A DNA stretch of 64,000 nt from Candidatus Latescibacterota bacterium (GCA_965215195.1 CBDCDC010000002.1:768001-832000), one strand, 5' to 3'. Counted from the stretch's first letter, positions 44,066 to 55,832 are shown. The notes: a model not told the origin generated them from the sequence alone. Translations and numbers: made by a program.

Positions 44066-44863
44066 TCAAAGTACATAGGCGAGACTGATTCCCACGAGGA
44101 GGGATGCGATGAGCTTGCCGCGATCGTGGCTGTGGAAATGGATCTCCGGTAACAGGTCGCTCAAGGCAATGCACAAGAACGCGCCCGCCGCAAAGGACAG
44201 CACATAGCCGATCACGGTCCCTTCTTCCGGGCCAAGCAATTCCACCCCCCCAAAGCTCGCCAGCGCCACGACCGGGCACAGCATGGCAAAGCCGACATTG
44301 GTCAATGTCCGGGCGCGCTGGCTGTGCCCGGCGTACTTCATCATGCTGACAATGGAGTACGCATCAAGCGGCTTGTGCAGCAGAATGACGAGGAATACCC
44401 CTAGGCCCGCCAAGGCGACTCCGTCTTCATACGGCGATTCCAACCTCATGCTGGTACCCAACGCGATCCCTTCGGTCGCGGTATGTACCCCTAGGCCGAG
44501 GGCCACGCCGAACAAACTCGGCGAATGGACGACACCGTGGTCGTCATACAGATCGCTCGCCTCGCGGCTGAAGTCGTGCTGGTGAAAGTGAAAGATATGC
44601 TGTAAGAGAATCATCAACACCATGCCTAACACCATCCATCCCACGGCTTTTTCTATGGCGCTAGGTCCAGGAATGTGATCGAGGCTATCGGGTAGCAGGT
44701 GAAACATGGCGATGCCGAGGATGAAGCCGGCTACGAGACTCATCACGACCTGAGTGCGCGTATGCGTCATGGTGCCCAAGGCCGCCAATTTGCCGCCGAG
44801 CAGGGAAGCGGCAAAGATGGCGGCTGAGTAGGCCGACAAAACCAGTAGAGCGTTTGCATCCAT
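44066..44863 (-). CDS. ZIP-family metal transporter (copy A)
   Basis: HLLP, HFHQH, GVHTATEGIALG, LHKPLD, DLLPE. Confidence 0.9.
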   Translation of the reverse strand: MDANALLVLSAYSAAIFAASLLGGKLAALGTMTHTRTQVVMSLVAGFILGIAMFHLLPDSLDHIPGPSAIEKAVGWMVLGMVLMILLQHIFHFHQHDFSREASDLYDDHGVVHSPSLFGVALGLGVHTATEGIALGTSMRLESPYEDGVALAGLGVFLVILLHKPLDAYSIVSMMKYAGHSQRARTLTNVGFAMLCPVVALASFGGVELLGPEEGTVIGYVLSFAAGAFLCIALSDLLPEIHFHSHDRGKLIASLLVGISLAYVL

Positions 44864-44879
44864 GACGACTATACTTTGT

Positions 44880-45920
44880 TCATCCTATCCGCCAAACCGT
44901 CGCGCCACCCCGCGCGTCGAGCGCGGCAAGCGCGCGCCCGTCAGGCCGCCAGTACAATTCGGCCACTGCGTCCGCCACAACCGCGGCCCCTATCGGATCG
45001 CCTTCTCCATCTCGCTGAAGCGACCACACAACCACAGCACCATCGCGGCCTCCCGATGCCAAGCGCATCGCGCCGGGAGCGAAGGAAAGCGTCGTGACGG
45101 GTTGAACATGAAACTCTAGAACGCCGGGCCGCGTACCTTCGGGACCCCCTCTCTGGAAGCTCCAGACCGTCACCGCCTCCCCTCCGCCAGTGGCCAAAAG
45201 GGTGCCGGTGTCATCGAAAGCCAAGGCCGACGGCTTGGCAGGATATCCGGACATCATGGAGTCCTCCTGCGTGGAACGACGCCAGAAGTGTACCGAGTTG
45301 TCTTGGCTGCCGCAGGCCACGATATCCCTGTTCGGGCTCAGTGCCATCGACACCAAGGATCCCTGCCACTCCAGCTTCTGGCGAAGCTCGCCGGTGGGCG
45401 CGTCGAAGAACGTCACTCGACCGTAACAGGCCGTCGCCAGCTCCCCTACGCTCGACCAAGCGATCGCGCTGACGGTGCTGGGATGATCATCAGATCGCCA
45501 AACCTCCGCGCCGTCCGCGCCATACGCGCGAACCTGCCGGGAGCAGGAGGCCGCCAACCATTGGCCGTCCGGCGACCACGCCACGTTTTCTACCCAACCG
45601 CTTCCGACGTCGATAGCCCGGCTTACCTGACCTTCGGCGGCACTCCAGATTAAGACTCGGCTGTCCTGGCCGGCCGTAGCGAACGCGGTTCCGCTTGGGT
45701 GGATCGCCACCGCGAGCACACCACCTTCATGAACCCCGCGCCGCTCCCAGGCGGTCGCGCCAGACTTGCCGTCGAATGCGTAGACGCCACCCGCAGCATC
45801 ACCGACCATCAGCACCTCACCGCGTAGGCTCCAACCCCCGGCGATGGCGTAGTCGCCAACCGCCGCAGACCAGCCCCGGCGAAGATCGCCCCTCGGGCTA
45901 CCGACATTCAAATCAGACAT
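44880..45920 (-). CDS. WD40-repeat protein associated with COG0523
   Basis: ATAGQDSRVLIW, WSPDGQWLA, GSQDNSVHFW, LASGGRDGAVVVW. Confidence 0.9.
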   Translation of the reverse strand: MSDLNVGSPRGDLRRGWSAAVGDYAIAGGWSLRGEVLMVGDAAGGVYAFDGKSGATAWERRGVHEGGVLAVAIHPSGTAFATAGQDSRVLIWSAAEGQVSRAIDVGSGWVENVAWSPDGQWLAASCSRQVRAYGADGAEVWRSDDHPSTVSAIAWSSVGELATACYGRVTFFDAPTGELRQKLEWQGSLVSMALSPNRDIVACGSQDNSVHFWRRSTQEDSMMSGYPAKPSALAFDDTGTLLATGGGEAVTVWSFQRGGPEGTRPGVLEFHVQPVTTLSFAPGAMRLASGGRDGAVVVWSLQRDGEGDPIGAAVVADAVAELYWRPDGRALAALDARGGATVWRIG

Positions 45921-47311
45921 GCTTCGAACTCCTGCCGCATGCTCTGCTCATCGAGGTTGCGGCCGATGAAGACGAGCTGATTGTGGCGGGGCGCGTCCCC
46001 CCATTCGCGATCCGGCTGGCCGTCAAAGAGCATGTGAACCCCCTGGAAGACGAAGCGATGCGACTCACCTGCGAGGCTGATGAAGCCCTTCATTCGGAAG
46101 ATGTCCACCCCGCGCTCACCAAGCAGTTTGCCAAGCCAAGCGTTGAGCCTGACGAGATCGACGTCGCCGTCCCTCTCGATCGCGATTGAGCCCACCTCGT
46201 CGTCGTGCTCGTGCTGTGCGACCCAGGTTCGCTCGACCTCGACGGGAACCACCGCTCCCTTGATGCGCAGGGCGCCGGTCTCTGTGGAGGCAAGATTGGA
46301 GCGCGGACTGTCTCCATCCGCGTTCGTCAGTTGGAGATCGAACTCCTCCGCGAGGTGCTGGGCGTAGAGGCCAACCCGCACCTGCGTATCGACCTCCAAG
46401 AAGAACGACTTGCGCCCTCGGGAATCGAGCCGGAGGTTCACATGCTTTCCGACCGGAATATCTTCCCCCGGGCGAATGAGCTCCGCAGGTTCGGCGTACC
46501 GCCGCACACACCACTCCGCACCCTCGCGGAGGGCAGCGTCATCTATGCCTTGGTCGGACACGACGACGAGCGACATCGCCGGGTCCGGTCCATCAGCGAG
46601 GCTGAGTTCGTAGCGGCCCATAGCGAGCGAATAGACTCCAGTCCATTCGAACGGATACTCCGGCTCGAGGAAGGTGGGGCGACGCTCGAGCGCCTGGTCC
46701 AAGTTGAAGGCACCGAGGTTGAGTACTGTGTCGACGGAGACATGCGCCCGCTCGCTGCGCACGACTCGCGCCATTCGGTTCATGTCTCGGAGCCGAGCTT
46801 CGAGCCTGTCGAGCACCTCGCCATTGACGAGGTCCGTCTTGTTGAGCACGAGAACATCTGCGAACGCGATTTGCTCCGTGCTTTCGTCGCTTCGGCCGAG
46901 CTGCTGCTCAATGTGGGCTGCATCGACGAGCGTGACGATTCCGTCAAGCGAGAACTCCGCGCGAATCTCGTCGTCCATGAAGAAGGTCTGAGCGACCGGA
47001 CCGGGATCGGCGAGCCCTGTGGTCTCCACCAACACATAGTCGAACTTGTCGCGGCGCTTCATGAGATTGCCGAGCACGCGAATCAGGTCTCCGCGCACCG
47101 TGCAGCAGATGCAGCCGTTCGACATCTCAAAGATCTCCTCGTCAGCGTTGATGACGAGCGCCTGATCGATGCCGACTTCCCCATACTCGTTTTCAATCAC
47201 GGCAATGCGCTTGCCGTGCTCCTCACTCAAAATCCGGTTGAGTAGGGTCGTCTTGCCAGAGCCGAGGAAGCCGGTGAGGATGGTAACAGGTACTTTTCGC
47301 GGCGTATTCAT
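45908..47311 (-). CDS. COG0523/CobW-family metallochaperone GTPase
   Basis: GFLGSGKTT, ENEYGE, GCICC, ETTGLADP, NKTD, RMKG, FQGVH, LVFIGR. Confidence 0.95.
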   Translation of the reverse strand: MNTPRKVPVTILTGFLGSGKTTLLNRILSEEHGKRIAVIENEYGEVGIDQALVINADEEIFEMSNGCICCTVRGDLIRVLGNLMKRRDKFDYVLVETTGLADPGPVAQTFFMDDEIRAEFSLDGIVTLVDAAHIEQQLGRSDESTEQIAFADVLVLNKTDLVNGEVLDRLEARLRDMNRMARVVRSERAHVSVDTVLNLGAFNLDQALERRPTFLEPEYPFEWTGVYSLAMGRYELSLADGPDPAMSLVVVSDQGIDDAALREGAEWCVRRYAEPAELIRPGEDIPVGKHVNLRLDSRGRKSFFLEVDTQVRVGLYAQHLAEEFDLQLTNADGDSPRSNLASTETGALRIKGAVVPVEVERTWVAQHEHDDEVGSIAIERDGDVDLVRLNAWLGKLLGERGVDIFRMKGFISLAGESHRFVFQGVHMLFDGQPDREWGDAPRHNQLVFIGRNLDEQSMRQEFEACLI

Positions 47312-47338: not shown

Positions 47339-48574
47339 TTAAGACTTGCCACTGCTGAGGTCCCGATCGCCCATGCTGGACCGGAAGCGAAGATTGAGTA
47401 GCATATCCTCGTAGCCACGGCGCAGGGCACCGGCGCGGAAGCGCCAGACGATCAGGGCGATGAGGAGCAAAGCACTGCCCCATTGCAGGAGTTGAACGGC
47501 TGGCGTATGGGAGGCGTCGAGGTTCACGGAAATTGCCAGACCAACGGCTAGCAGCAGCGCATCGATGGCGATGCCGAGAACGACTGTAACCGCGATGACT
47601 GCGGCGACGTAGATGGATGCAAAGCGGGAGCCGAAGCGGCTGACGATGATCGCGATGGTGCCCGTGTTGGTAGCCGGTCCAGTCATCAGAAAAATCAGTG
47701 CCGCGCCGGGGCTGACTCCATTGGCAACTAGCGCGGCGGCGATTGGAGTACTGGCGGATGCGCAGATGTAGAGAGGGATGCCGATCAGCACCATGACCGG
47801 ATAGGACAGATAGCGGGCGTACTCGTGCGCCATCAGATCGCTCGGAAGCGCCAGAAAGAGCACGCCGCCCAGCACGACCCCCACCAGCAGCGCAAAGAGA
47901 ATGTCGTCGGCTATCTCAATGAAGCCATGGCGAAAGACGTGCCTGACCAGCTTTTTGAAGTCAAGCTCTTGATTGTCGGTGGGGACTTCTGCGGTGGATT
48001 GTCGGCCAGCGATTCCCTTCAACCAGTTGACCAGTTGCGAAGGGCTGACATAGCAATCATCCCTGTCGGCTATGAGGGATTGGTGATGATCGTGGCTACA
48101 TTCATGGTAGTGATCGTGGTCGCTTGCCTCGGCTTCATCTCGGTCGTCTCTTATCAGTCTGATGCAAAAAAGCCCGGCGACGACCGCGGTGATGAAGCTG
48201 ATGACGGGCCGCACAATGGCAACGATGGGTCCGAAAAAGGCGTTGGTGACTAAGATCGAATCCGCACCCGTCTCCGGCGCGGTGATCAAGAAAGACATGC
48301 AGGACGAACGGGACGCGCCCTTATTGCGCATCTCAGCGACTACCGGCACGACCGAGCAACTGCACAGGGGCACGGGTACGCCAATAGCCGAACTCATGGT
48401 CACGGATTTTAGGCTGTCGTCGCGGAGCCAGCGGAGAATGGCCTGACGGGAGATAAACACATGAATCAGGCCGGAGAGGAACAGCCCCAGCAGCAGCATG
48501 GGGGCTAGCAGTAAAAAGGAAGCCCAGAGGAAGGCAAAAAAACTGGTTAATATCCCAAGAAAATCAAAGGTCAT
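47339..48574 (-). CDS. DUF318/SO_0444-family metal permease (copy A)
   Basis: PLCSCSVVP, PETGADS, His loop DHDHYHECSHDHH, YICASASTP, GPATN. Confidence 0.88.
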   Translation of the reverse strand: MTFDFLGILTSFFAFLWASFLLLAPMLLLGLFLSGLIHVFISRQAILRWLRDDSLKSVTMSSAIGVPVPLCSCSVVPVVAEMRNKGASRSSCMSFLITAPETGADSILVTNAFFGPIVAIVRPVISFITAVVAGLFCIRLIRDDRDEAEASDHDHYHECSHDHHQSLIADRDDCYVSPSQLVNWLKGIAGRQSTAEVPTDNQELDFKKLVRHVFRHGFIEIADDILFALLVGVVLGGVLFLALPSDLMAHEYARYLSYPVMVLIGIPLYICASASTPIAAALVANGVSPGAALIFLMTGPATNTGTIAIIVSRFGSRFASIYVAAVIAVTVVLGIAIDALLLAVGLAISVNLDASHTPAVQLLQWGSALLLIALIVWRFRAGALRRGYEDMLLNLRFRSSMGDRDLSSGKS

Positions 48575-48617
48575 TCTGTGCAATCCCATCGTCCGGTGAG
48601 TAAATTCAGACGAATTC

Positions 48618-50855
48618 TTAGAAGAATATCTTGTGCAGCAGGCGCAGATTGCGGCCTGGCTCGGGCAGGATCTCTTTGACGCGGTTGAGGTGATTGCGGT
48701 ACACCGCGTCGGTAGCGTTTTCCAAGGTCAAGGAGAAGGTGTGCAGACGTCCCCCCCACTGCGCGTAGTACTGGCTCGAAAGATCCAGCACTGCGTAGCC
48801 TTCCGTAGGCTCTTCAAACTCACCGACCTGGTCCTGTTCCGCAGCCAAGCGCACGTCAATGGTCGCACTCAGCGCCTCGGTGGGTTCGCAGGTCAGGCTC
48901 AGGTGCCCTTGCAGGGGCGGCAGACGCGGCAGGGGTTCGCGGTTGCGGTCAGCGAGGTGGCCGCGCACATAGCTGAGGGAGCCAGCCGTTTTCCAGTGCT
49001 TTGCCACGTGCCAATCGAAGGTGGCTTCGGCACCGTGCATGAGGACGCGCTCCCCCACAGTCTGGTAGAGAAAGAGATCGGCGCGGCGCAAGCTGCGCTC
49101 GCCGCTGTTCTTGGGGAAAATGTACCCGTCAATGGCGTTGCGGAAGATGGCCAAGTGCAGATGGCCTTCTTCGCGGTGATAGTCGGCAAACAGCTCCAAC
49201 CCCAAGCCGCGCTCGCTGTCGAGAGCACCATTGCCCACCTCGTACGCATAGGCGGCCAAATGCGGTCCTTCGGAGAACAGCTCTTCAATGCCGGGAGCGC
49301 GAAAAGTGCGCATCAAGGTCGTGCCCAACGTCAAAGTCGAACTGGCGCGATAGTGATTGGACAAACCGGCAGACATCCCGGCAAAATCGCGCGTCTGGAT
49401 GCTGCCGACCCGGCGCGAATAGCGCTCCTCGCGTGGCTCGACGCGGCGGGCGTCAACGCGCAGGGCCGCATTGGCTGCCCAAGGCCCATGCTGCCACTCT
49501 TGGTACGCGAACAAAGCACCGGCATATTCCTCGGCCGGCGGCGTATAGTTGAGCCCGGCCGCGGCATAGTTGCGGTACTCGTACCACAGACCAACCGCGC
49601 CGTTTTCAAAAGGCCCCATGCGATCCAAGTGAGCTAGCGCACCGCTGTTGTGCGTGAGCACACCGAACTCCAGCCCCAAGGCACCGCTAGCTTCGAATTC
49701 GCCGTGCTGATAGCGCGAAAACGAGTGGTGCAATTCTAGGCGCTGGAGCCAGTCCGGCCCGGTGACAATTTCGCCACGCCCTTCGAGGTGCTGGCGCTGG
49801 AGATCAATGGATATGCCGTGCGGGTGGCCGCCCTGCGGATCGGGGGGAATGCCGTAGTCGGAGTTGTACAAGCTACCGGACGCGCCCACGTGCCCCCAAG
49901 GACGCACCAGACTCAGGCCGACCGAAGCATTGCCGGTGCGGATATCCGTATTGGCGAGTACCCCACGCGGCGTGGCAATATCGTCGGCATTGCGCAGACT
50001 GCTGTCGAAGCGCAGGGCCAGTGGGCCGAGCGGCTGTTCAAGAGTCAGGCCGCCGGACAAACCGCGATTGACGCTCTCCCCCTGATACGTCACAGATCCC
50101 CCCAAGTCGTCGGGCCGCTCGGAGGGCACGTACCCGCGCACCACGTTGACGACCCCGGCTAAAGCATTAGAGCCGTAGAGCAAGGTGTGGGGGCCGCGCA
50201 CGACCTCGATGCGCTCGGTGGTCATCGGCTCGATAGCCACGGCATGGTCTGAGGAAGTGCCGGACAAATCGCCGGTGCGCTCGCCGTCTTCGACCATCAG
50301 CAAGCGGTCGCCACCCAGCCCGCGCAGCACCGGACGCGCCGGCGCGGGCCCCATCGAACGCTGAGCAATGCCCGGCTCGTAGGCGATGGTCTCGGCGATG
50401 GTGCGGCTCAAGTTCTGCCGCAGCTTGCTACCGCTGAAGACAATTTCGGGTGCTTGGAGTGGGGAAACAGGGCTCCTGTGTTCGCCTTCGATGAGAATCG
50501 CCTCTACGTGCAGGGACTCGTGGCCGATAACCAGATCGACGTGGGTGGTATCCCCGGCCACGACCTCGACCTCAAAGCGGGCCTCGCGGTAGCCGACGTG
50601 TAGGCTTTGCAAGACGTGCGCACCAGAGGGTACGTTGGCGAAAAAGAAGTACCCCTCGGCATCGCTCATCCGCGCCCGTTCGAGCCCCTCGATGACGACG
50701 GTAGTCCAAGCGACGGATTGGCCGCTTTCGGCGTCGATCACATGACCGGCTAGCGAACCGGTCTGGTCGCCCCAAGCGGAACTTACTGCTAGGCCGAGTA
50801 CAGGGGCGAACCTCAAAAGCAGCCGGGACCAGATTCTACGGCTTGCGTTTTTCAT
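48618..50855 (-). CDS. TonB-dependent receptor, ZnuD-like metal uptake
   Basis: ATG at 50855, CarboxypepD-like N-domain, RPVLRGLGGDR...DHAV...IEVVRGP..LLYGSNALAGVVNV, ELFSEGPH, PGRN, C-terminal Phe. Confidence 0.92.
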   Translation of the reverse strand: MKNASRRIWSRLLLRFAPVLGLAVSSAWGDQTGSLAGHVIDAESGQSVAWTTVVIEGLERARMSDAEGYFFFANVPSGAHVLQSLHVGYREARFEVEVVAGDTTHVDLVIGHESLHVEAILIEGEHRSPVSPLQAPEIVFSGSKLRQNLSRTIAETIAYEPGIAQRSMGPAPARPVLRGLGGDRLLMVEDGERTGDLSGTSSDHAVAIEPMTTERIEVVRGPHTLLYGSNALAGVVNVVRGYVPSERPDDLGGSVTYQGESVNRGLSGGLTLEQPLGPLALRFDSSLRNADDIATPRGVLANTDIRTGNASVGLSLVRPWGHVGASGSLYNSDYGIPPDPQGGHPHGISIDLQRQHLEGRGEIVTGPDWLQRLELHHSFSRYQHGEFEASGALGLEFGVLTHNSGALAHLDRMGPFENGAVGLWYEYRNYAAAGLNYTPPAEEYAGALFAYQEWQHGPWAANAALRVDARRVEPREERYSRRVGSIQTRDFAGMSAGLSNHYRASSTLTLGTTLMRTFRAPGIEELFSEGPHLAAYAYEVGNGALDSERGLGLELFADYHREEGHLHLAIFRNAIDGYIFPKNSGERSLRRADLFLYQTVGERVLMHGAEATFDWHVAKHWKTAGSLSYVRGHLADRNREPLPRLPPLQGHLSLTCEPTEALSATIDVRLAAEQDQVGEFEEPTEGYAVLDLSSQYYAQWGGRLHTFSLTLENATDAVYRNHLNRVKEILPEPGRNLRLLHKIFF

Positions 50856-50958
50856 TTGTCGGCTATCCAATTGACCTTGACATAAGTACACGGGACCGGA
50901 GTTTGCGTCCGCTCTCGCGTCGCTTTTACCTATGAAGGCCGCAGCAGCTCTAACCATT

Positions 50959-51465
50959 TTACCCCTCCTCGTCGTGCTCGTCGTGTTCCTCACCGGGTCC
51001 GTCCTCGCTGACGTGAATCTCAATCTCCGGCGAGACGAAATCGGCGTGGCCTTCGTGGTTGACCTTGAGGCGGATGGTAGTCGCGCCTTCCTCTAAGCCG
51101 AGGATGTGAAAAGCCCAAGCCCCGTCCTCGGCGTGATGCTCAACTTCGGCGATGCTCTCGTCGGCAATTTCCCAACCGAGGGAGAAATCATCGGCTTCGT
51201 CTGGGGTGAAGAGATCGCCGTCTTCGGCGATAAAGCGCACGGAAAGCAGCGCGGTTTCCTTGCCGTGACCGACTTCAATTTCGCCGGTCACTTGGCCGCT
51301 TTCAACCCGGACGATTTCAGCGCCGCTATCGCGCACGATCAGACCGACAGCCTCGGCGTGTTCATCATGGTGGTCAGGATCGACGGGATTATCGTCGTCG
51401 CCGCAGCTAGCCATAAAGAGGGCTAAGGCGAAAATGCTCAACGCAGACATACTTCTTTTCAGCAT
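50959..51465 (-). CDS. His/acidic-rich lipoprotein (copy A), putative metal-binding
   Basis: TGGAG RBS, MASC lipobox, DHHDEHAE, HEGHADF, EEHDEHDEE. Confidence 0.85.
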   Translation of the reverse strand: MLKRSMSALSIFALALFMASCGDDDNPVDPDHHDEHAEAVGLIVRDSGAEIVRVESGQVTGEIEVGHGKETALLSVRFIAEDGDLFTPDEADDFSLGWEIADESIAEVEHHAEDGAWAFHILGLEEGATTIRLKVNHEGHADFVSPEIEIHVSEDGPGEEHDEHDEEG

Positions 51466-51580
51466 GGTGCTAGTCTCCAATGGTTTGACCGTCCACGCGC
51501 ATTTCACCTAAGGCGTTGTGCGCAGAACGGGAATTTAATGGTACGCGAATTGGATCTGGAGAGAGGCACCCACGCACTAA

Positions 51581-51732
51581 GAGGCGGTCTGAAAACGCAC
51601 GTCAGGCCGTTAGGGCCTAGGAGGGAGGGCGTCTCGCCCTCCACCCTGCGAGGGCAAGAGGCCCTCGCACCCAAGCTATGGGCCACACGAGGGGTTTGTC
51701 ACGCCTAAAGGCGCGGTGAAGCAGACCGCTTC
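51581..51732. mobile_element. MITE-like element containing a REP-like hairpin doublet (copy A)
   Basis: Ends GAGGCGGTCTG / CAGACCGCTTC flanked by TAA on both sides; inner hairpins GGAGGGCG-TCT-CGCCCTCC and TGCGAGGGC..GCCCTCGCA. Confidence 0.55.
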
Positions 51733-51758
51733 TAAGGCAGTTTACCAGCGTGGATGCA

Positions 51759-52073
51759 CTAGCACCGGGGCGGGCCGCGGTTGAGATGGGTAAAGCGAGG
51801 GGTAAAAAGGAGTAACGGTACTGTGCGCAGAGTGGACGGATTTGGCTCTGAGGCATTCAGCACCACGAGCGCGAGCGCCAAGCCCCAAAAAAGGAGCGAT
51901 AGGCTGCTCTGCAACAGGCAAGCTGGGCAGTTCTCAGGCTCGACGTGGCTCTCGTGGCAAAGCTGGTGGCCGAAGGGTAAGCCGCAGCTTACAGCCGCAA
52001 AGAGCACGGTCAGCACCAGCAGAGCCAGCGAGGACGCCGAGCCTATCGAGATGTCCGTTTTGCGCGTTAGCAT
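51759..52073 (-). CDS. DUF2946-like leader protein (copy A)
   Basis: Hydrophobic N-terminus, HQLCHESH...CPAC, Pro-rich linker, C-terminal RGPP. Confidence 0.78.
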   Translation of the reverse strand: MLTRKTDISIGSASSLALLVLTVLFAAVSCGLPFGHQLCHESHVEPENCPACLLQSSLSLLFWGLALALVVLNASEPNPSTLRTVPLLLFTPRFTHLNRGPPRC

Positions 52074-52081
52074 GGTCTTTG

Positions 52082-52109
52082 ATTTTAGTGGTTTGGCAAA
52101 AAAACGCAA
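52082..52109 (-). promoter_or_regulatory. Sigma70-type promoter, likely leaderless transcript (copy A)
   Basis: TTGCGT-N16-TAAAAT, with ATG 8 nt downstream. Confidence 0.55.
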
Positions 52110-52179
52110 CTTCAACCCCAGCAGGCTTGCCCTTTTTAAGCACTGTCCACTCAACGGGTTGGCCGCTTTCGGCGAGCAC

Positions 52180-52350
52180 CAGTCTGGTCGCCCCAAGCGG
52201 GACCTGCTGCTAGGCCAAGTACGGACGCAAGCCTCCAAAGCAGCCGGGCCAGATTCTGCGGCTTGCGGCTTTTGTCTGTCGGCTATCCAATTGACCTTGA
52301 CATAAATGCGCGGGACCGGAGCTTGCGTCCGGTCCCGCGTCGCTTTTACC
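52180..52350 (-). pseudogene. Degenerate remnant of the TonB-receptor 5' end and upstream hairpin
   Basis: Aligns by eye to ~50760-50931; the ATG is lost; hairpin CGCGGGACCGGA..TCCGGTCCCGCG. Confidence 0.7.
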
Positions 52351-52368
52351 TAAGTGGGTCTAACCGCT

Positions 52369-52875
52369 TTACCCTTCTTCTTCGTGCTCGTCGTGTTCCT
52401 CACCGGGTCCGTCCTCGCTGACGTGAATCTCAATCTCCGGCGAGACGAAATCGGCGTGGCCTTCGTGGTCGATCTTGAGGCGGATGGTAGTCGCGCCTTC
52501 CTCTAAGCCGAGGATGTGAAAAGCCCAAGCCCCGTCCTCGGCGTGATGCTCAACTTCGGCGATGCTCTCGTCGGCAATTTCCCAACCGAGGGAGAAATCA
52601 TCGGCTTCGTCTGGGGTAAAGAGATCGCCGTCTTCGGCGATAAAGCGCACGGAAAGCAGCGCGGTTTCCTTGCCGTGACCGACTTCAATCTCGCCGGTCA
52701 CTTGGCCGCTTTCAACGCGGACGATTTCAGCGCCGCTATCGCGCACGATCAGGCCGACGGCCTCGGCGTGTTCATCATGGTGGTCAGGATCGACGGGATT
52801 ATCGTCGTCGCCGCAGCTAGCAACAAAGAGGGCCAAGGCGAAAATGCTCAACGCAGACATACTTCTTTTAAGCAT
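52369..52875 (-). CDS. His/acidic-rich lipoprotein (copy B)
   Basis: Near-identical to 50959..51465, with only a few substitutions. Confidence 0.85.
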   Translation of the reverse strand: MLKRSMSALSIFALALFVASCGDDDNPVDPDHHDEHAEAVGLIVRDSGAEIVRVESGQVTGEIEVGHGKETALLSVRFIAEDGDLFTPDEADDFSLGWEIADESIAEVEHHAEDGAWAFHILGLEEGATTIRLKIDHEGHADFVSPEIEIHVSEDGPGEEHDEHEEEG

Positions 52876-52989
52876 GGTGCTAGTCTCCAATGGTTTGACC
52901 GTCCACGCGCACTGCGTTCACTAGGCGCACAGAACGGAGATTTAGTGGTACGAGAAATACGGATCTGGAGAGAGGCACCCACGCACTAA

Positions 52990-53117
52990 GAGGCGGTCTG
53001 AAAACTCGCGTCGGGCCGGGCCGTTAGGGCCTAGGAGGGAGGGCGTCTCGCCCTCCACCATGCGAGGGCAAGATGCTCTCGCACCCAAGCTATGGGCCGC
53101 AGTTTTCAGAACGCTTC
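52990..53117. mobile_element. MITE-like element containing a REP-like hairpin doublet (copy B)
   Basis: GAGGCGGTCTGAAAACT / AGTTTTCAGAACGCTTC (15/17 inverted match) flanked by TAA at 52987-52989 and 53118-53120. Confidence 0.6.
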
Positions 53118-53141
53118 TAAGGCAGTTTCAGCGTGGATGCA

Positions 53142-53456
53142 CTAACACCGGGGCGGGCCGCGGTTGAGATGGGTAAAGCGAGGGGTGAAAAGAGGCAGGG
53201 GTACTGTGCGCGGGGCGGACGGGCCTAGCTCGGGGGCGTTTAGTGCCACGAGCACGAGCGGCAGGCCCCAAAAAAGGAGCGATAGGCCGCTCTGCAACAA
53301 GTAAGCCGGGCAATTCTCCGGCTCAACGAGGCTCTCGTGGAAAAGCTGGTGGCCGAAGGGCAAGCCGCATAAGACAGCCGCCAAGAGCGCGGTCAGCACC
53401 AGCAGGCTTAGCGAGTGCGCCGAATGCGTCGAGAGGTCCGTTTTGCGCGTTAGCAT
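53142..53456 (-). CDS. DUF2946-like leader protein (copy B, reduced Cys/His set)
   Basis: Paralog of copy A with HQLFHESL...CPAY; RGPP retained. Confidence 0.78.
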   Translation of the reverse strand: MLTRKTDLSTHSAHSLSLLVLTALLAAVLCGLPFGHQLFHESLVEPENCPAYLLQSGLSLLFWGLPLVLVALNAPELGPSAPRTVPLPLFTPRFTHLNRGPPRC

Positions 53457-53464
53457 GACCTTTG

Positions 53465-53493
53465 ATTTTAGTGGTCCGGCAGCAAAAACGCAA
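53465..53493 (-). promoter_or_regulatory. Sigma70-type promoter, likely leaderless transcript (copy B)
   Basis: TTGCGT-N17-TAAAAT, with ATG 8 nt downstream; conserved between copies. Confidence 0.6.
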
Positions 53494-53559
53494 CTTCAAC
53501 TCCAGCGGCCACCCTGATCGAGGCTTGCCCTTTCTAGGAGATGTTTCCTTCTTATCACA

Positions 53560-54795
53560 ATGACCTTTGAATTTCTTGGGATATTGACCCGTTTTTTCGC
53601 CTTCCTCTGGTCATCCTTCCTGTTGTTAGCACCCATGCTTCTGCTGGGGCTGTTCCTTTCCGGCCTGATCCACGTATTCATCTCCCGCCAAGCCATACTC
53701 CGCTGGCTCCGCGACGACAGTCTGAAGTCCGTAACCACGAGCTCGGCCATTGGCGTACCCGTGCCCCTGTGCAGTTGCTCGGTCGTGCCGGTAGTCGCTG
53801 AGATGCGCAATAAGGGCGCGTCCCGTGCGTCCTGCATGTCTTTCTTGATCACCGCGCCGGAGACGGGTGCGGACTCGATCTTAGTCACTAATGCCTTTTT
53901 CGGACCCATCGTTGCCATTGTGCGGCCCGTCATCAGCTTTATCACCGCGGTCGTCGCCGGGGTCTTTTGCATTGGCCTCATAAGAGACGACCGCGACGAA
54001 GCCAAGGCGAGCGACCCCAACCAGTGCCACAACTGTGCCCACGACCACGGCTGGCACCAATCTCTCGTAGCCGACAGGGATGATTGCTACGTCAGCCCCG
54101 CTCAACTCAAGGTATTACTGGTCAACTGGATTGCTCGCAGACGATCCACCGGCGATGTACCCACAGACGCTCAGGGTTTGGATTTCGAGAAGCTGGTCAA
54201 GCACGTCTTGCGCTATGGCTTCGTCGAGATAGCCGACGACATTCTCTTTGCGCTGCTGGTGGGCGTCGCGCTGGGCGGGGTGCTCTTTCTGGCCATTCCG
54301 AGCGATTTGATGGCGCACGAGTATGCCCGCTATCTGTCCTATCCGGTCATGGTGCTGATCGGCATTCCCCTCTACATCTGCGCATCCGCCAGCACCCCGA
54401 TCGCCGCCGCACTCGTTGCCAAGGGAGTCAGCCCGGGTGCGGCCCTGATCTTTCTGATGACCGGACCGGCCACCAACACGGGCACCATCGCGATCATCGT
54501 CAGCCAGTTCGGCTCCCGCTTCGCATCCATCTACGTCGCCGCAGTCATCGCGGTTACGCTCGTCCTCGGCATCGCGATCGACGCGCTGCTGCTGGCCGCT
54601 GGGCTGACGATTTCCGCGGACCTCAACGCCTCCCATGCGCCGGCCATTCAGTTCCTGCAATGGGGCAGCGCTTTTGCCCTCATCGCCCTGATCGTCTGGC
54701 GGTTCCGGGCCGGTGCCCTGCGCAGCGGGTACGAGGATATGCTGCTCAATATCCGTCCCGGGTCCAGCACCAGCGACCGGTGTGGGGACACCTGA
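53560..54795 (+). CDS. DUF318/SO_0444-family metal permease (copy B)
   Basis: Close paralog of 47339..48574; loop QCHNCAHDHGWH. Confidence 0.88.
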   Translation: MTFEFLGILTRFFAFLWSSFLLLAPMLLLGLFLSGLIHVFISRQAILRWLRDDSLKSVTTSSAIGVPVPLCSCSVVPVVAEMRNKGASRASCMSFLITAPETGADSILVTNAFFGPIVAIVRPVISFITAVVAGVFCIGLIRDDRDEAKASDPNQCHNCAHDHGWHQSLVADRDDCYVSPAQLKVLLVNWIARRRSTGDVPTDAQGLDFEKLVKHVLRYGFVEIADDILFALLVGVALGGVLFLAIPSDLMAHEYARYLSYPVMVLIGIPLYICASASTPIAAALVAKGVSPGAALIFLMTGPATNTGTIAIIVSQFGSRFASIYVAAVIAVTLVLGIAIDALLLAAGLTISADLNASHAPAIQFLQWGSAFALIALIVWRFRAGALRSGYEDMLLNIRPGSSTSDRCGDT

Positions 54796-54998: not shown

Positions 54999-55832
54999 AT
55001 GGACTCAAATTCTCTACTGATCTTGTTGGCCTACTCAGCCGCCATCTTTGCCGCTTCCTTGCTCGGCGGGAAACTGTCGGCCTTGGGCACCATGACGCAT
55101 ACGCGCACCCAAGTCGTGATGAGTCTGGTGGCCGGCTTCATCCTCGGCATCGCCATGTTTCACATGCTACCCCACAGCCTCGAGCGCATTCCCGGGCCTG
55201 ACGTGGTAGAAAAAGCCGTGGGCTGGATGGTGTGCGGCATGGTCCTGATGATTTTTTTGCTACGCATCTTTCACTTTCATCAGCACGACTTCAGCCGCGA
55301 GGCGAGCGATCTGTACGATCGGCACGGCCACGGTGGCGTCCATGCGCGGAGTTTGTTCGGCGTTGCCCTCGGCCTAGGGGTGCATACCGCGACCGAAGGG
55401 ATCGCGCTGGGAACCAGCATGAGGTTGGGGCCGCCGCACGAAAGCGATGCCGCGTTGGCGGGCCTAGGGGTATTCCTCGCCATTGTGCTGCACAAGCCGC
55501 TAGACGCGTACTCCATTATCGGCATGATGCAGTCGGCCGGTCACAGCCGGCGCGCCCGCACGGCGGTCAATGTCGGATTTGCCATGCTGGGCCCTGTGGT
55601 GGCACTGGCGAGTTTCTGGGGCGTGGGATTGCTCGGCCCGCAAGAAGGGGCGGTGGTCGGCTACGCGCTGGCCTTTGCAGCGGGTGCGTTCCTGTGCATT
55701 GCCTTGAGCGACCTGCTGCCGGAGATCCATTTCCACAGCCACGATCGCGGCAAGCTCATCGCATCCCTCCTCGTGGGAATCGGTCTGGCCTATGCCCTGT
55801 GCGTTGAATCCAGCACCATCCATGGGCATTAG
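54999..55832 (+). CDS. ZIP-family metal transporter (copy B)
   Basis: Close paralog of 44066..44863; ends STIHGH. Confidence 0.9.
   Translation: MDSNSLLILLAYSAAIFAASLLGGKLSALGTMTHTRTQVVMSLVAGFILGIAMFHMLPHSLERIPGPDVVEKAVGWMVCGMVLMIFLLRIFHFHQHDFSREASDLYDRHGHGGVHARSLFGVALGLGVHTATEGIALGTSMRLGPPHESDAALAGLGVFLAIVLHKPLDAYSIIGMMQSAGHSRRARTAVNVGFAMLGPVVALASFWGVGLLGPQEGAVVGYALAFAAGAFLCIALSDLLPEIHFHSHDRGKLIASLLVGIGLAYALCVESSTIHGH

Follow-up and report, generated by a model that had tools for sequence, protein, structure and literature searches.

Nascent-peptide sensing of a metal has so far been described for two studied proteins, both concerned with copper: CruR (Bp2923) of Bordetella pertussis, which acts through Rho (PMC9426467), and CutF of Rhodobacter capsulatus, which acts by unmasking a ribosome-binding site (RBS) (PMC9973294). 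Both are reported to be undetectable as proteins and to act purely in cis. In CruR, which controls a TonB-dependent receptor, a CxxC motif (residues 90-93) and a RAPP motif (139-142) are separated by 45 residues, with 49 positions from Cys90 to Arg139; such Cys-Arg spacing is kept in more than 2000 DUF2946 proteins, and the Rho-dependent output is accompanied by a stretch in which C exceeds G, a C>G bubble (PMC9426467). Toeprinting of CruR placed the arrested ribosome with the two Pro codons in its P and A sites; RGPP and RAPP arrested translation in several contexts and are strongly avoided in proteomes, and a genome survey delimited a class of RAPP/RGPP upstream open reading frames (uORFs) in front of TonB-related genes (PMC12992588). 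That survey left out uORFs whose downstream gene was annotated as unknown, an omission that would apply to the locus described here: two tandem uORF-lipoprotein units in front of a TonB-dependent receptor gene, in a 64,000-nt stretch of DNA from Candidatus Latescibacterota bacterium (GCA_965215195.1, CBDCDC010000002.1:768001-832000; hereafter, the window).

Each unit is about 1.4 kb long and lies on the minus strand, as do all features below unless stated otherwise; coordinates are those of the window. In order, a unit holds a promoter-like site, a 104-aa uORF, a spacer and the gene of a 168-aa lipoprotein. We consider it probable, judging from the sequences and their relatives, that both units act in cis as metal sensors of the CruR/CutF type, by way of nascent-peptide arrest. 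A sequence-only reading of the same window had proposed tandem leaderless leader peptides that act through a long-range helix on a metal-uptake operon, and all the elements that it listed were found where it had placed them.

A peptide family with an arrest-type motif near its stop

Reading and translating the minus strand bore out two frames of 104 aa, both ending in NRGPPRC-stop, in which R-G-P-P occupies residues 99-102 and is followed by two residues and the stop codon. An R-x-P-P motif (x being G, A or P) was present in all 44 uORF copies of the first 30 loci, with two residues between it and the stop in 42 of them, and the arrest motif was found in 18 out of 20 further loci. Among 24 diverse members, Leu32, Pro33, His36, His40, Cys49, Arg99, Pro101 and Pro102 were invariant, and Glu45, Glu47 and Pro50 nearly so. 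When 37 members including other phyla were compared, His36, Cys49, Pro101 and Pro102 still did not vary, and every member carried the motif [R/K]-[A/G/P/S]-P-P, at a distance from the Cys to the Arg or Lys of 50 residues in 29 members, 49 in seven and 51 in one. In uORFs A and B, 46 residues separate the Cys motif from the arrest motif. The hydropathy profile has two hydrophobic segments, at about residues 14-34 and 53-73, on either side of the putative ligand loop; these segments and the ligand residues are kept across phyla, in peptides of 92-109 aa.

The two copies of a tandem pair are not equivalent. Both copies were resolved in 13 loci, and in all 13 the paralogues differed in their ligand set in the same way, the upstream copy type (HQLFH...CPAY) having three conserved ligands and the downstream type (HQLCHE[S/G]H...CPAC) up to six. 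The genus pairs a few-ligand putative sensor with one that has extra Cys/His residues and (E/G)SH repeat expansions. In the downstream-type uORFs of relatives L022, L023, L026 and L019, the loop is expanded to HESHESHESH, HESHGSHGSHGSH or HEGHERH and the peptide is 107-113 aa long. Such expansions alter distances within the loop and leave the Cys-to-Arg spacing unchanged.

A homologue was found in 50 of 76 genomes of the host order, including 26 out of 30 of the genus, many of them with two copies, and a profile matched 55 of 168 genomes of the phylum, in two families. The same kind of search over 1.84 billion representatives returned only 52 sequences at E <= 0.001, nearly all of about 92-117 aa, the exceptions being a few fragments and fusions; by their record names, family members occur in Gemmatimonadota and Calditrichota. 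A Calditrichaceae record (L067, 6001-9819) holds a 93-aa homologue that ends KAPP-V-W-stop, followed by a two-domain lipoprotein homologue (39% identity), a similarly built receptor and a major facilitator superfamily transporter; its spacer of about 305 nt is closed, in a single-sequence fold, by a helix between the stop region and a point some 25 nt 5' of the Shine-Dalgarno sequence (SD). Some genomes of other genera (G072, G067, G073, G074 and G098) hold three separately placed copies of the uORF family, and two such extra loci of G072 (L087 and L088) have a receptor of the same kind, with the lipoprotein detectable at one only. In the single copy of relative L032, the uORF continues past R-G-P-P as ALVHPRW-stop through an apparent one-base frame change; from this sequence, the ribosome would translate through the 5' arms of the helices P1 and P2 described below, with the arrest site unmoved.

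The conserved length, hydrophobic segments and ligands could also belong to a stable membrane protein with two helices and a part in uptake, for instance one that hands metal to a transporter, and the distinct ligand sets of the paralogues in all the resolved tandem loci would fit it too; R-x-P-P would then stand for non-regulatory slow translation, and the spacer for a fixed damper of lipoprotein translation. We hold this to be very improbable, given that RGPP and RAPP are shunned by proteomes and arrest ribosomes in many contexts (PMC12992588), that the motif stands at a fixed distance from the stop, that pairing of the stop region with the start of the next gene has three sequence versions (see below), and that CruR and CutF are reported to escape detection as proteins and to act in cis alone (PMC9426467, PMC9973294).

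Pairing between the uORF stop and the lipoprotein start

In unit A, GGUGCUAGU, at the stop of the uORF, is the exact complement of ACUAGCACC, the nine nucleotides adjoining the lipoprotein AUG, so the 9-bp helix anticipated from the sequence (here P1) is borne out. Unit B keeps it with GGUGUUAGU, in which a synonymous TGC>TGT change produces a G-U pair. When the 20 nt before the AUG were shuffled in 20000 trials per copy, a 9-nt Watson-Crick run arose in 20 of the 20000 shuffles for copy A, and a 9-nt run allowing G-U in 399 of the 20000 for copy B. Folding of both units gave minimum-free-energy structures that both contain P1 (z -4.6 and -4.4). A 10-bp hairpin, P2, starts one base 3' of the uORF stop; CUCCA just 3' of P2 pairs with the SD UGGAG, forming P3, and P1 closes the junction. 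The sequence-only reading had extended P1 by a UCCA:UGGA pairing; the complementarity exists, but both the folds and the relatives indicate that it is probably unused, since UCCA sits in P2 and UGGAG pairs with CUCCA.

The spacer measures 293 nt in unit A and 266 nt in unit B, and the range of about 290 nt given for the helix is produced by dispersed repeats with inverted ends inserted in the P2 loop, at about 51741-51577 in unit A and at 53121-52986 in unit B (inverted ends 53121-53101 and 53006-52986). The loop of copy A holds an extra nested piece of about 47 nt. The middle of the spacer has 83 matches in the same genome, on both strands, and an RNA contig of a relative skips 165 nt of it. 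Spacers of relatives measure 106-170 nt unless some repeat has been inserted at the same place, and other insertions at this very spot were seen in relatives L013, L017, L018, L020 and L024; the variety of insertions at one site suggests that the P2 loop tolerates or attracts small mobile repeats.

Comparison of P1 and P2 covered 35 distinct units of the genus, three of a nearby clade and 18 of distant genera. In the genus, P1 is a 9-nt run in 31 of the 35 units. Of the cells in 30 aligned short spacers, 95.5% pair in P1-P4, as against 28-48% when the 3' partners are slid. The three nearby-clade sequences show covariation in P1, where U-A has become C-G through a Cys-to-Arg codon change in the uORF and an A-to-G change before the AUG. 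All ten pairs of P2 can form in 31/35 genus, 3/3 nearby and 10/18 distant units, which shuffled arms equalled in 0.25-1.8% of trials, and the pair types vary between clades. An anti-SD lies within 10 nt 3' of P2 in 32 genus, three nearby and nine distant units.

Distant genera lack the P1 sequence of the genus, and no P1-like helix rose above chance in them when only the sequence upstream of the AUG was tested; with the start codon included, two other versions were found. The second version pairs (U)CCUGAGCAU (last codon, stop and next four bases) with AUGCUCAGG(A) (start and first codons) and forms a run of 9-12 nt in 14 of the 18 distant units; in 12 of the 18, at most 5 of 500 shuffles equalled the observed run, and at two positions a C-G pair has been replaced by U-A in compensatory fashion. 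A third version, present in two loci, pairs CRCGUUUYR with UGAAACGUG, over a GUG start. This recurrence of P1 as three sequence solutions for one geometry is the strongest comparative result. Across genera the stop-to-start helix changes its sequence; within the genus covariation is thin.

A predicted arrest switch

On the reading that we favour, transcription would begin at or very near the ATG of the 104-aa peptide, giving a leaderless or near-leaderless messenger. The peptide would consist of an N-terminal membrane helix, a loop with His36, His40, Glu45, Glu47 and Cys49, a second hydrophobic helix and R-G-P-P near the stop, where the ribosome would arrest, its P and A sites occupied by the two Pro codons. 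It would then cover the last codons and the stop, which otherwise would be engaged in P1 with the nine nucleotides before the lipoprotein AUG. P1 would cap a three-way structure in which P2 begins one base past the stop and the CUCCA that follows P2 holds the SD in P3. Arrest would remove P1 and make the lipoprotein start easier to open, raising expression of the lipoprotein and the ZnuD-like receptor and, in this genome, also that of the permease, COG0523, WD40 and ZIP genes. Plentiful metal, most likely zinc and sensed outside the cytoplasm, would bind the His/Cys loop of the nascent chain, upon which the arrest would be released, translation would terminate and the structure would close. 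This direction of response (metal releases the arrest and turns the operon off) is inferred by analogy with CruR and fits the logic of uptake.

The geometry is compatible with such a switch. As toeprinting has established, protection by a bacterial ribosome extends about 15 nt 3' of the first base in the P site. Here a protection of that length would end exactly at the end of the stop codon; the 5' arms of all three P1 versions fall wholly or mostly inside this predicted footprint and P2 just outside it, so that on arrest P1 would be lost and P2 and P3 would persist. At the arrest point the ligand loop would be 52-65 residues, and the second hydrophobic helix 28-48 residues, from the peptidyl-transferase centre; the loop would thus lie beyond the translocon.

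Partition-function models were used to compare how costly it is to open the lipoprotein start (positions -17 to +12) when the stop region is free and when it is blocked as it would be by an arrested ribosome. In the genus the block lowered this cost from 13.2 to 9.7 kcal/mol, with a drop of at least 2 kcal/mol in 28/35 units and a rise in 2/35; in the other units it went from 13.4 to 11.0 kcal/mol, with such a drop in 13/21 and a rise in 5/21.

Several results weigh against this reading. On the peptide side, the DUF2946 model (Pfam PF11162, gathering cut-off 23.7 bits) matched uORF A at 19.7 bits (E 0.0015), below the cut-off, and did not match uORF B; 5 of 24 family members matched at E <= 1, none over the cut-off, as did two of 35 distant representatives at E <= 0.1 (22.0 and 19.0 bits). 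The second Cys of the CxxC motif is not conserved, with CPAC in A, CPAY in B and C, Y, H, R, S, G or N at this fourth position in the family. On the RNA side, the pairs that change on both sides within the genus are one in P1 and two in P2; double-sided changes numbered 6 where 3.2 were expected, a figure equalled in 29 of 500 shuffles. Four of the 18 distant units have no helix of at least 9 nt, and the block did not lower the opening cost in the 2/35 genus and 5/21 other units in which it rose. The SD stays paired with the anti-SD with or without the block (probability of being unpaired mostly <0.2), and about 10 kcal/mol of structure remains. A consensus promoter scan did not call the promoter-like sites of the uORFs. 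As for the metal, linkage of the zinc-type genes (COG0523 and ZIP) to the receptor is confined to a sub-lineage, and the permease family, named for Cu/Zn efflux, and the generic immunoglobulin (Ig)-like fold of the lipoprotein speak against certainty on zinc.

What stands of the proposed kinship with CruR and CutF is the hydrophobic N-terminus, the Cys/His motif, RGPP near the stop and a spacing like that of CruR, but neither a DUF2946 score over the cut-off nor the CxxC motif. A scan of the whole genome likewise gave no DUF2946 match over the cut-off. The weak matches take in the model's C-terminal half, beginning at the Cys motif and running to the final position; this coverage up to the model's end, together with the near-equal spacing, points to distant homology. 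With all members below 23.7 bits and a second Cys that is not conserved, we call the family DUF2946-like and not DUF2946.

The idea that a stalled ribosome frees the lipoprotein start also held in part: in these thermodynamic models opening of the RBS becomes only about 3.5 kcal/mol cheaper, but the SD is still paired. The switch would accordingly be partial at equilibrium, and a strong response would need kinetic effects or a second control layer. Partial opening on arrest is also what favours attenuation of the CruR type, in which the arrested ribosome would mainly keep Rho off a C-rich site at the uORF end, release by metal would lead to Rho termination in the spacer, and the RNA helices would be secondary or would act as pause sites. 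The last ~90 nt of the uORFs form the strongest C>G bubble in 2.8 kb (C 42-52%, G 10-22%; about 53230-53150 and 51830-51770), and CruR, the closest studied case with a TonB receptor, uses Rho with a bubble of this kind (PMC9426467). The C-richness may, however, come in part from Pro, Leu, Thr and Phe codons, and strong structure is predicted for the spacer (z -4.4 to -4.6). Moreover, a stop-to-start helix that exists in three versions and always falls on the SD-AUG region is what RBS masking would lead one to expect, whereas Rho has no need of it. We therefore consider Rho unlikely as the main route, while noting that it could coexist with RBS masking.

Locus, regulated genes and relation to known systems

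The features of the locus are collected in Table 1.

Table 1. Features of the two tandem units and of the genes behind them, in window coordinates
Feature	Position	Strand	Remarks
Promoter-like site, unit B	TTGCGT 53493-53488; TAAAAT 53470-53465	-	17 nt between the two; 8 nt (CAAAGGTC) to ATG; read from sequence
uORF B, 104 aa	53456..53142	-	upstream type (HQLFH...CPAY); R-G-P-P codons 53162-53151; stop 53144-53142
P1 5' arm, unit B, GGUGUUAGU	53149-53141	-	partner 52884-52876
P2 hairpin, unit B	53140-52975	-	arms 53140-53131 and 52984-52975
Anti-SD CUCCA, unit B	52970-52966	-	partner SD UGGAG 52889-52885
Predicted masked initiation region, lipoprotein B	SD UGGAG 52889-52885; P1 3' arm ACUAGCACC 52884-52876; AUG 52875	-	
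Lipoprotein B, 168 aa	52875..52369	-	lipobox Cys; His/Asp/Glu-rich ends
Perfect 12-bp GC-rich hairpin 3' of lipoprotein B	52339-52309	-	terminator-like, weak U tail
Relic of receptor-gene 5' end	52352-52246	-	88% identical to 50826-50932; far end of duplicated unit
Promoter-like site, unit A	TTGCGT 52109-52104; TAAAAT 52087-52082	-	16 nt between the two; 8 nt (CAAAGACC) to ATG
uORF A, 104 aa	52073..51759	-	downstream type (HQLCHESH...CPAC); R-G-P-P codons 51779-51768; stop 51761-51759
P1 5' arm, unit A, GGUGCUAGU	51766-51758	-	inside predicted arrested-ribosome footprint
P2 hairpin, unit A	51757-51566	-	arms GCAUCCACGC 51757-51748 and GCGUGGGUGC 51575-51566
Anti-SD CUCCA, unit A	51561-51557	-	within CUCUCUCCA directly 3' of P2; partner SD UGGAG 51479-51475
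Predicted masked initiation region, lipoprotein A	SD UGGAG 51479-51475; P1 3' arm ACUAGCACC 51474-51466; AUG 51465	-	
Lipoprotein A, 168 aa	51465..50959	-	98% identical to lipoprotein B
TonB-dependent receptor	50855..48618	-	ATG 50855
SO_0444-family permease	48589..47339	-	
COG0523 GTPase	47311..45908	-	
WD40 protein	45920..44880	-	
ZIP transporter	44863..44066	-	

The TTGCGT-N16/17-TAAAAT arrangement ending 8 nt before each uORF ATG was confirmed by reading the sequence, and those 8 nt hold no GGAG-type SD, in keeping with the statement that no strong SD precedes the uORFs. Nearly all the distinct upstream regions in the genus share this promoter-uORF layout, some of them with the variants TTGCTT or TATACT; the consensus scan missed it because TTGCGT agrees with TTGACA at only 3/6 positions. 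On this sequence evidence the uORF messenger probably starts with little or no leader. In a relative of about 90% identity, metatranscriptome contigs (X1-X3; window 51523-52057 and 52338-52905) join the uORF, a short repeat-free spacer and the lipoprotein gene; they come from a single study and one relative, cannot prove a transcript or its end, and are uninformative on the parts left uncovered. Two of the RNA contigs stop at 52057, 16 nt within uORF A; at the very most, this hints faintly that transcription starts near the ATG.

The -10 region of both uORF promoters contains ACCAYTAAA (52084-52095 and 53467-53478), and ACCAYTAAAT recurs in both spacers (51545-51534 and 52952-52941), where it is conserved and predicted to be unpaired; the spacer motif may be an internal promoter or a regulator site. 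An internal promoter at this repeat of the uORF promoter's -10 region would drive the lipoprotein without the uORF, from a start 3' of the anti-SD and hence unmasked. Such a promoter is, in our judgement, the least probable of the alternatives, as no acceptable -35 element lies upstream, copy B reads TAAATC, the promoter scan calls nothing at the motif, and the RNA contigs of the relative run from uORF through spacer to lipoprotein, within the limits just given for contigs.

The two units are 97% identical in lipoprotein DNA and about 95% in the conserved parts of the spacer but only 83% in the uORFs. Between them lies a relic of about 100 nt of the receptor gene's start, its start codon gone; the position of this relic behind unit B indicates that the duplication took in the promoter, the uORF, the lipoprotein gene and the start of the receptor gene. 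The hairpin after lipoprotein A is a degenerate version of the perfect one after lipoprotein B, a difference that would allow readthrough into the receptor gene from unit A alone. From the receptor to ZIP, the genes overlap or are separated by gaps of at most 28 nt. A search of 50500-54000 against Rfam gave no significant family; the top match, tpke11, scored 26 bits against a cut-off of 43 and fell on the hairpin behind lipoprotein B. On the plus strand, a second ArsP_1/SO_0444-type permease and a second ZIP gene (53560-54795 and 54999-55832) diverge from uORF B across a 103-nt gap; in relatives both query copies match one single gene, which marks the second pair as recent paralogues of the operon's own. 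The closest homologues are named by their sources as proteins of Gemmatimonadota metagenome-derived genomes.

Of the cargo that had been assigned to the switch, the lipoprotein and the TonB receptor are conserved, but the permease, COG0523, WD40 and ZIP genes follow the receptor only here and in 2 of 10 further loci of the genus; among 12 loci from other genera and one further family, not one has them on the same strand within 12 kb. What is conserved is a module of uORF, lipoprotein and receptor, with a homologue of the lipoprotein 3' of all 44 uORF copies and in 19 of the 20 loci of another set. Receptor identity is 84-90% in the genus and 70-82% in other genera (70-90% in 19/22 loci), over at least 95% of the query in 20/22.

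That this cargo points to zinc and not to copper is upheld by the receptor, whose best solved relative is ZnuD (E 8e-33) ahead of the copper receptor OprC (4e-13), but COG0523 and ZIP have joined in the sub-lineage only. The likeness to ZnuD-type zinc receptors comprises the top solved relative, the top NCBIfam model and the COG0523 and ZIP genes that follow here; the NCBIfam ZnuD model scores 175 bits against a cut-off of 950 and in this the receptor is unlike them. The permease belongs to the SO_0444 family with 329 bits (cut-off 300). Eight His/Asp/Glu residues of the lipoprotein are invariant, and its tails are rich in His and Asp; nothing in Pfam or NCBIfam matched the protein, and Atlas gave unnamed lipoprotein clusters only. 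Its AlphaFold model (predicted local distance difference test, pLDDT, 82) is an Ig-like sandwich whose top PDB matches are S-layer, Rib and Ig domains (template modelling score, TM, 0.4-0.46), which is uninformative on the metal. Given the ZnuD relative, the His/His/Cys/Glu ligand set, the His/Asp/Glu residues of the lipoprotein and the presence of COG0523 and ZIP in this lineage, the sensed metal is most likely zinc. In a study of Zur in Caulobacter, a zur mutant table gives two DUF2946 genes as down-regulated, which is a different relation (PMC4176598).

Taken more widely, and with clear reserve, the locus could represent a branch of the CruR/CutF nascent-chain sensors that lies outside Pfam's model and possibly senses periplasmic zinc through a His2-Cys(-Glu) loop between two membrane helices. 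Metal-driven folding of the loop could pull on the chain and release the arrest, the mRNA partner would have been re-invented at least three times, and the tandem sensors could provide two metal thresholds for one uptake system. If true, the principle would extend to zinc acquisition and to phyla outside Pseudomonadota; the ligand set His/His/Cys, in place of CxxC, points to a different metal, and zinc goes unmentioned in the main texts on CruR and CutF (PMC9426467, PMC9973294). Surveys based on Pfam miss this branch because its scores fall under the gathering cut-off, and those based on downstream-gene annotation would miss it because the first downstream gene encodes an unannotated lipoprotein. 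The locus offers a defined RNA output structure with natural compensatory variants and a natural side-by-side pair of sensors. With its ruler of 49-51 residues and its second membrane helix, it is also a system for asking how ligand binding outside the cell reaches the ribosome.

Relative to the main texts of the CruR, CutF and RAPP papers, the new elements are the sub-threshold branch with its ligand set, the cargo of lipoprotein and ZnuD-like receptor, the hairpin/anti-SD module at the stop, the long-range helix in three versions, the probably leaderless start and the tandem diverged sensors. With CruR (PMC9426467) the uORFs share a small size, a hydrophobic N-terminus, a Cys-containing metal motif and an R-A/G-P-P placed two to three residues before the stop, with a Cys-to-Arg distance of 49 in CruR and 49-51 here; both head an operon with a TonB-dependent metal-acquisition transporter, and in both the ORF ends in a C>G bubble. 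They differ in that CruR has CxxC where this family has His-x3-His and one Cys and a Pfam score below the cut-off. Unlike CruR, the uORFs described here have a second hydrophobic helix between metal site and arrest motif, a His-rich lipoprotein as the first regulated gene, a receptor that resembles ZnuD and not a copper transporter, a probably leaderless start and two diverged tandem sensors, and they are followed by a conserved, predicted RBS-masking structure whereas CruR is described as acting through Rho.

CutF differs in its motif, a PPP that depends on elongation factor P, where RGPP or RAPP is found here (PMC9973294; bioRxiv 10.1101/2025.02.05.636593). It controls a detoxifying copper oxidase and stalls with the metal present; the cargo here is for uptake, and the opposite direction of response is therefore to be expected. 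Its RNA element is a local stem-loop, as compared with a three-way junction and a long-range helix over 106-293 nt. The RAPP/RGPP peptides ApdA, ApdP and those like SecM are likewise small exported or membrane proteins with the core motif close to the C-terminus, encoded 5' of the controlled gene, but they monitor protein export and control sec/yidC (PMC12992588), whereas the uORFs of this family have a metal-ligand loop and stand before a lipoprotein and a receptor.

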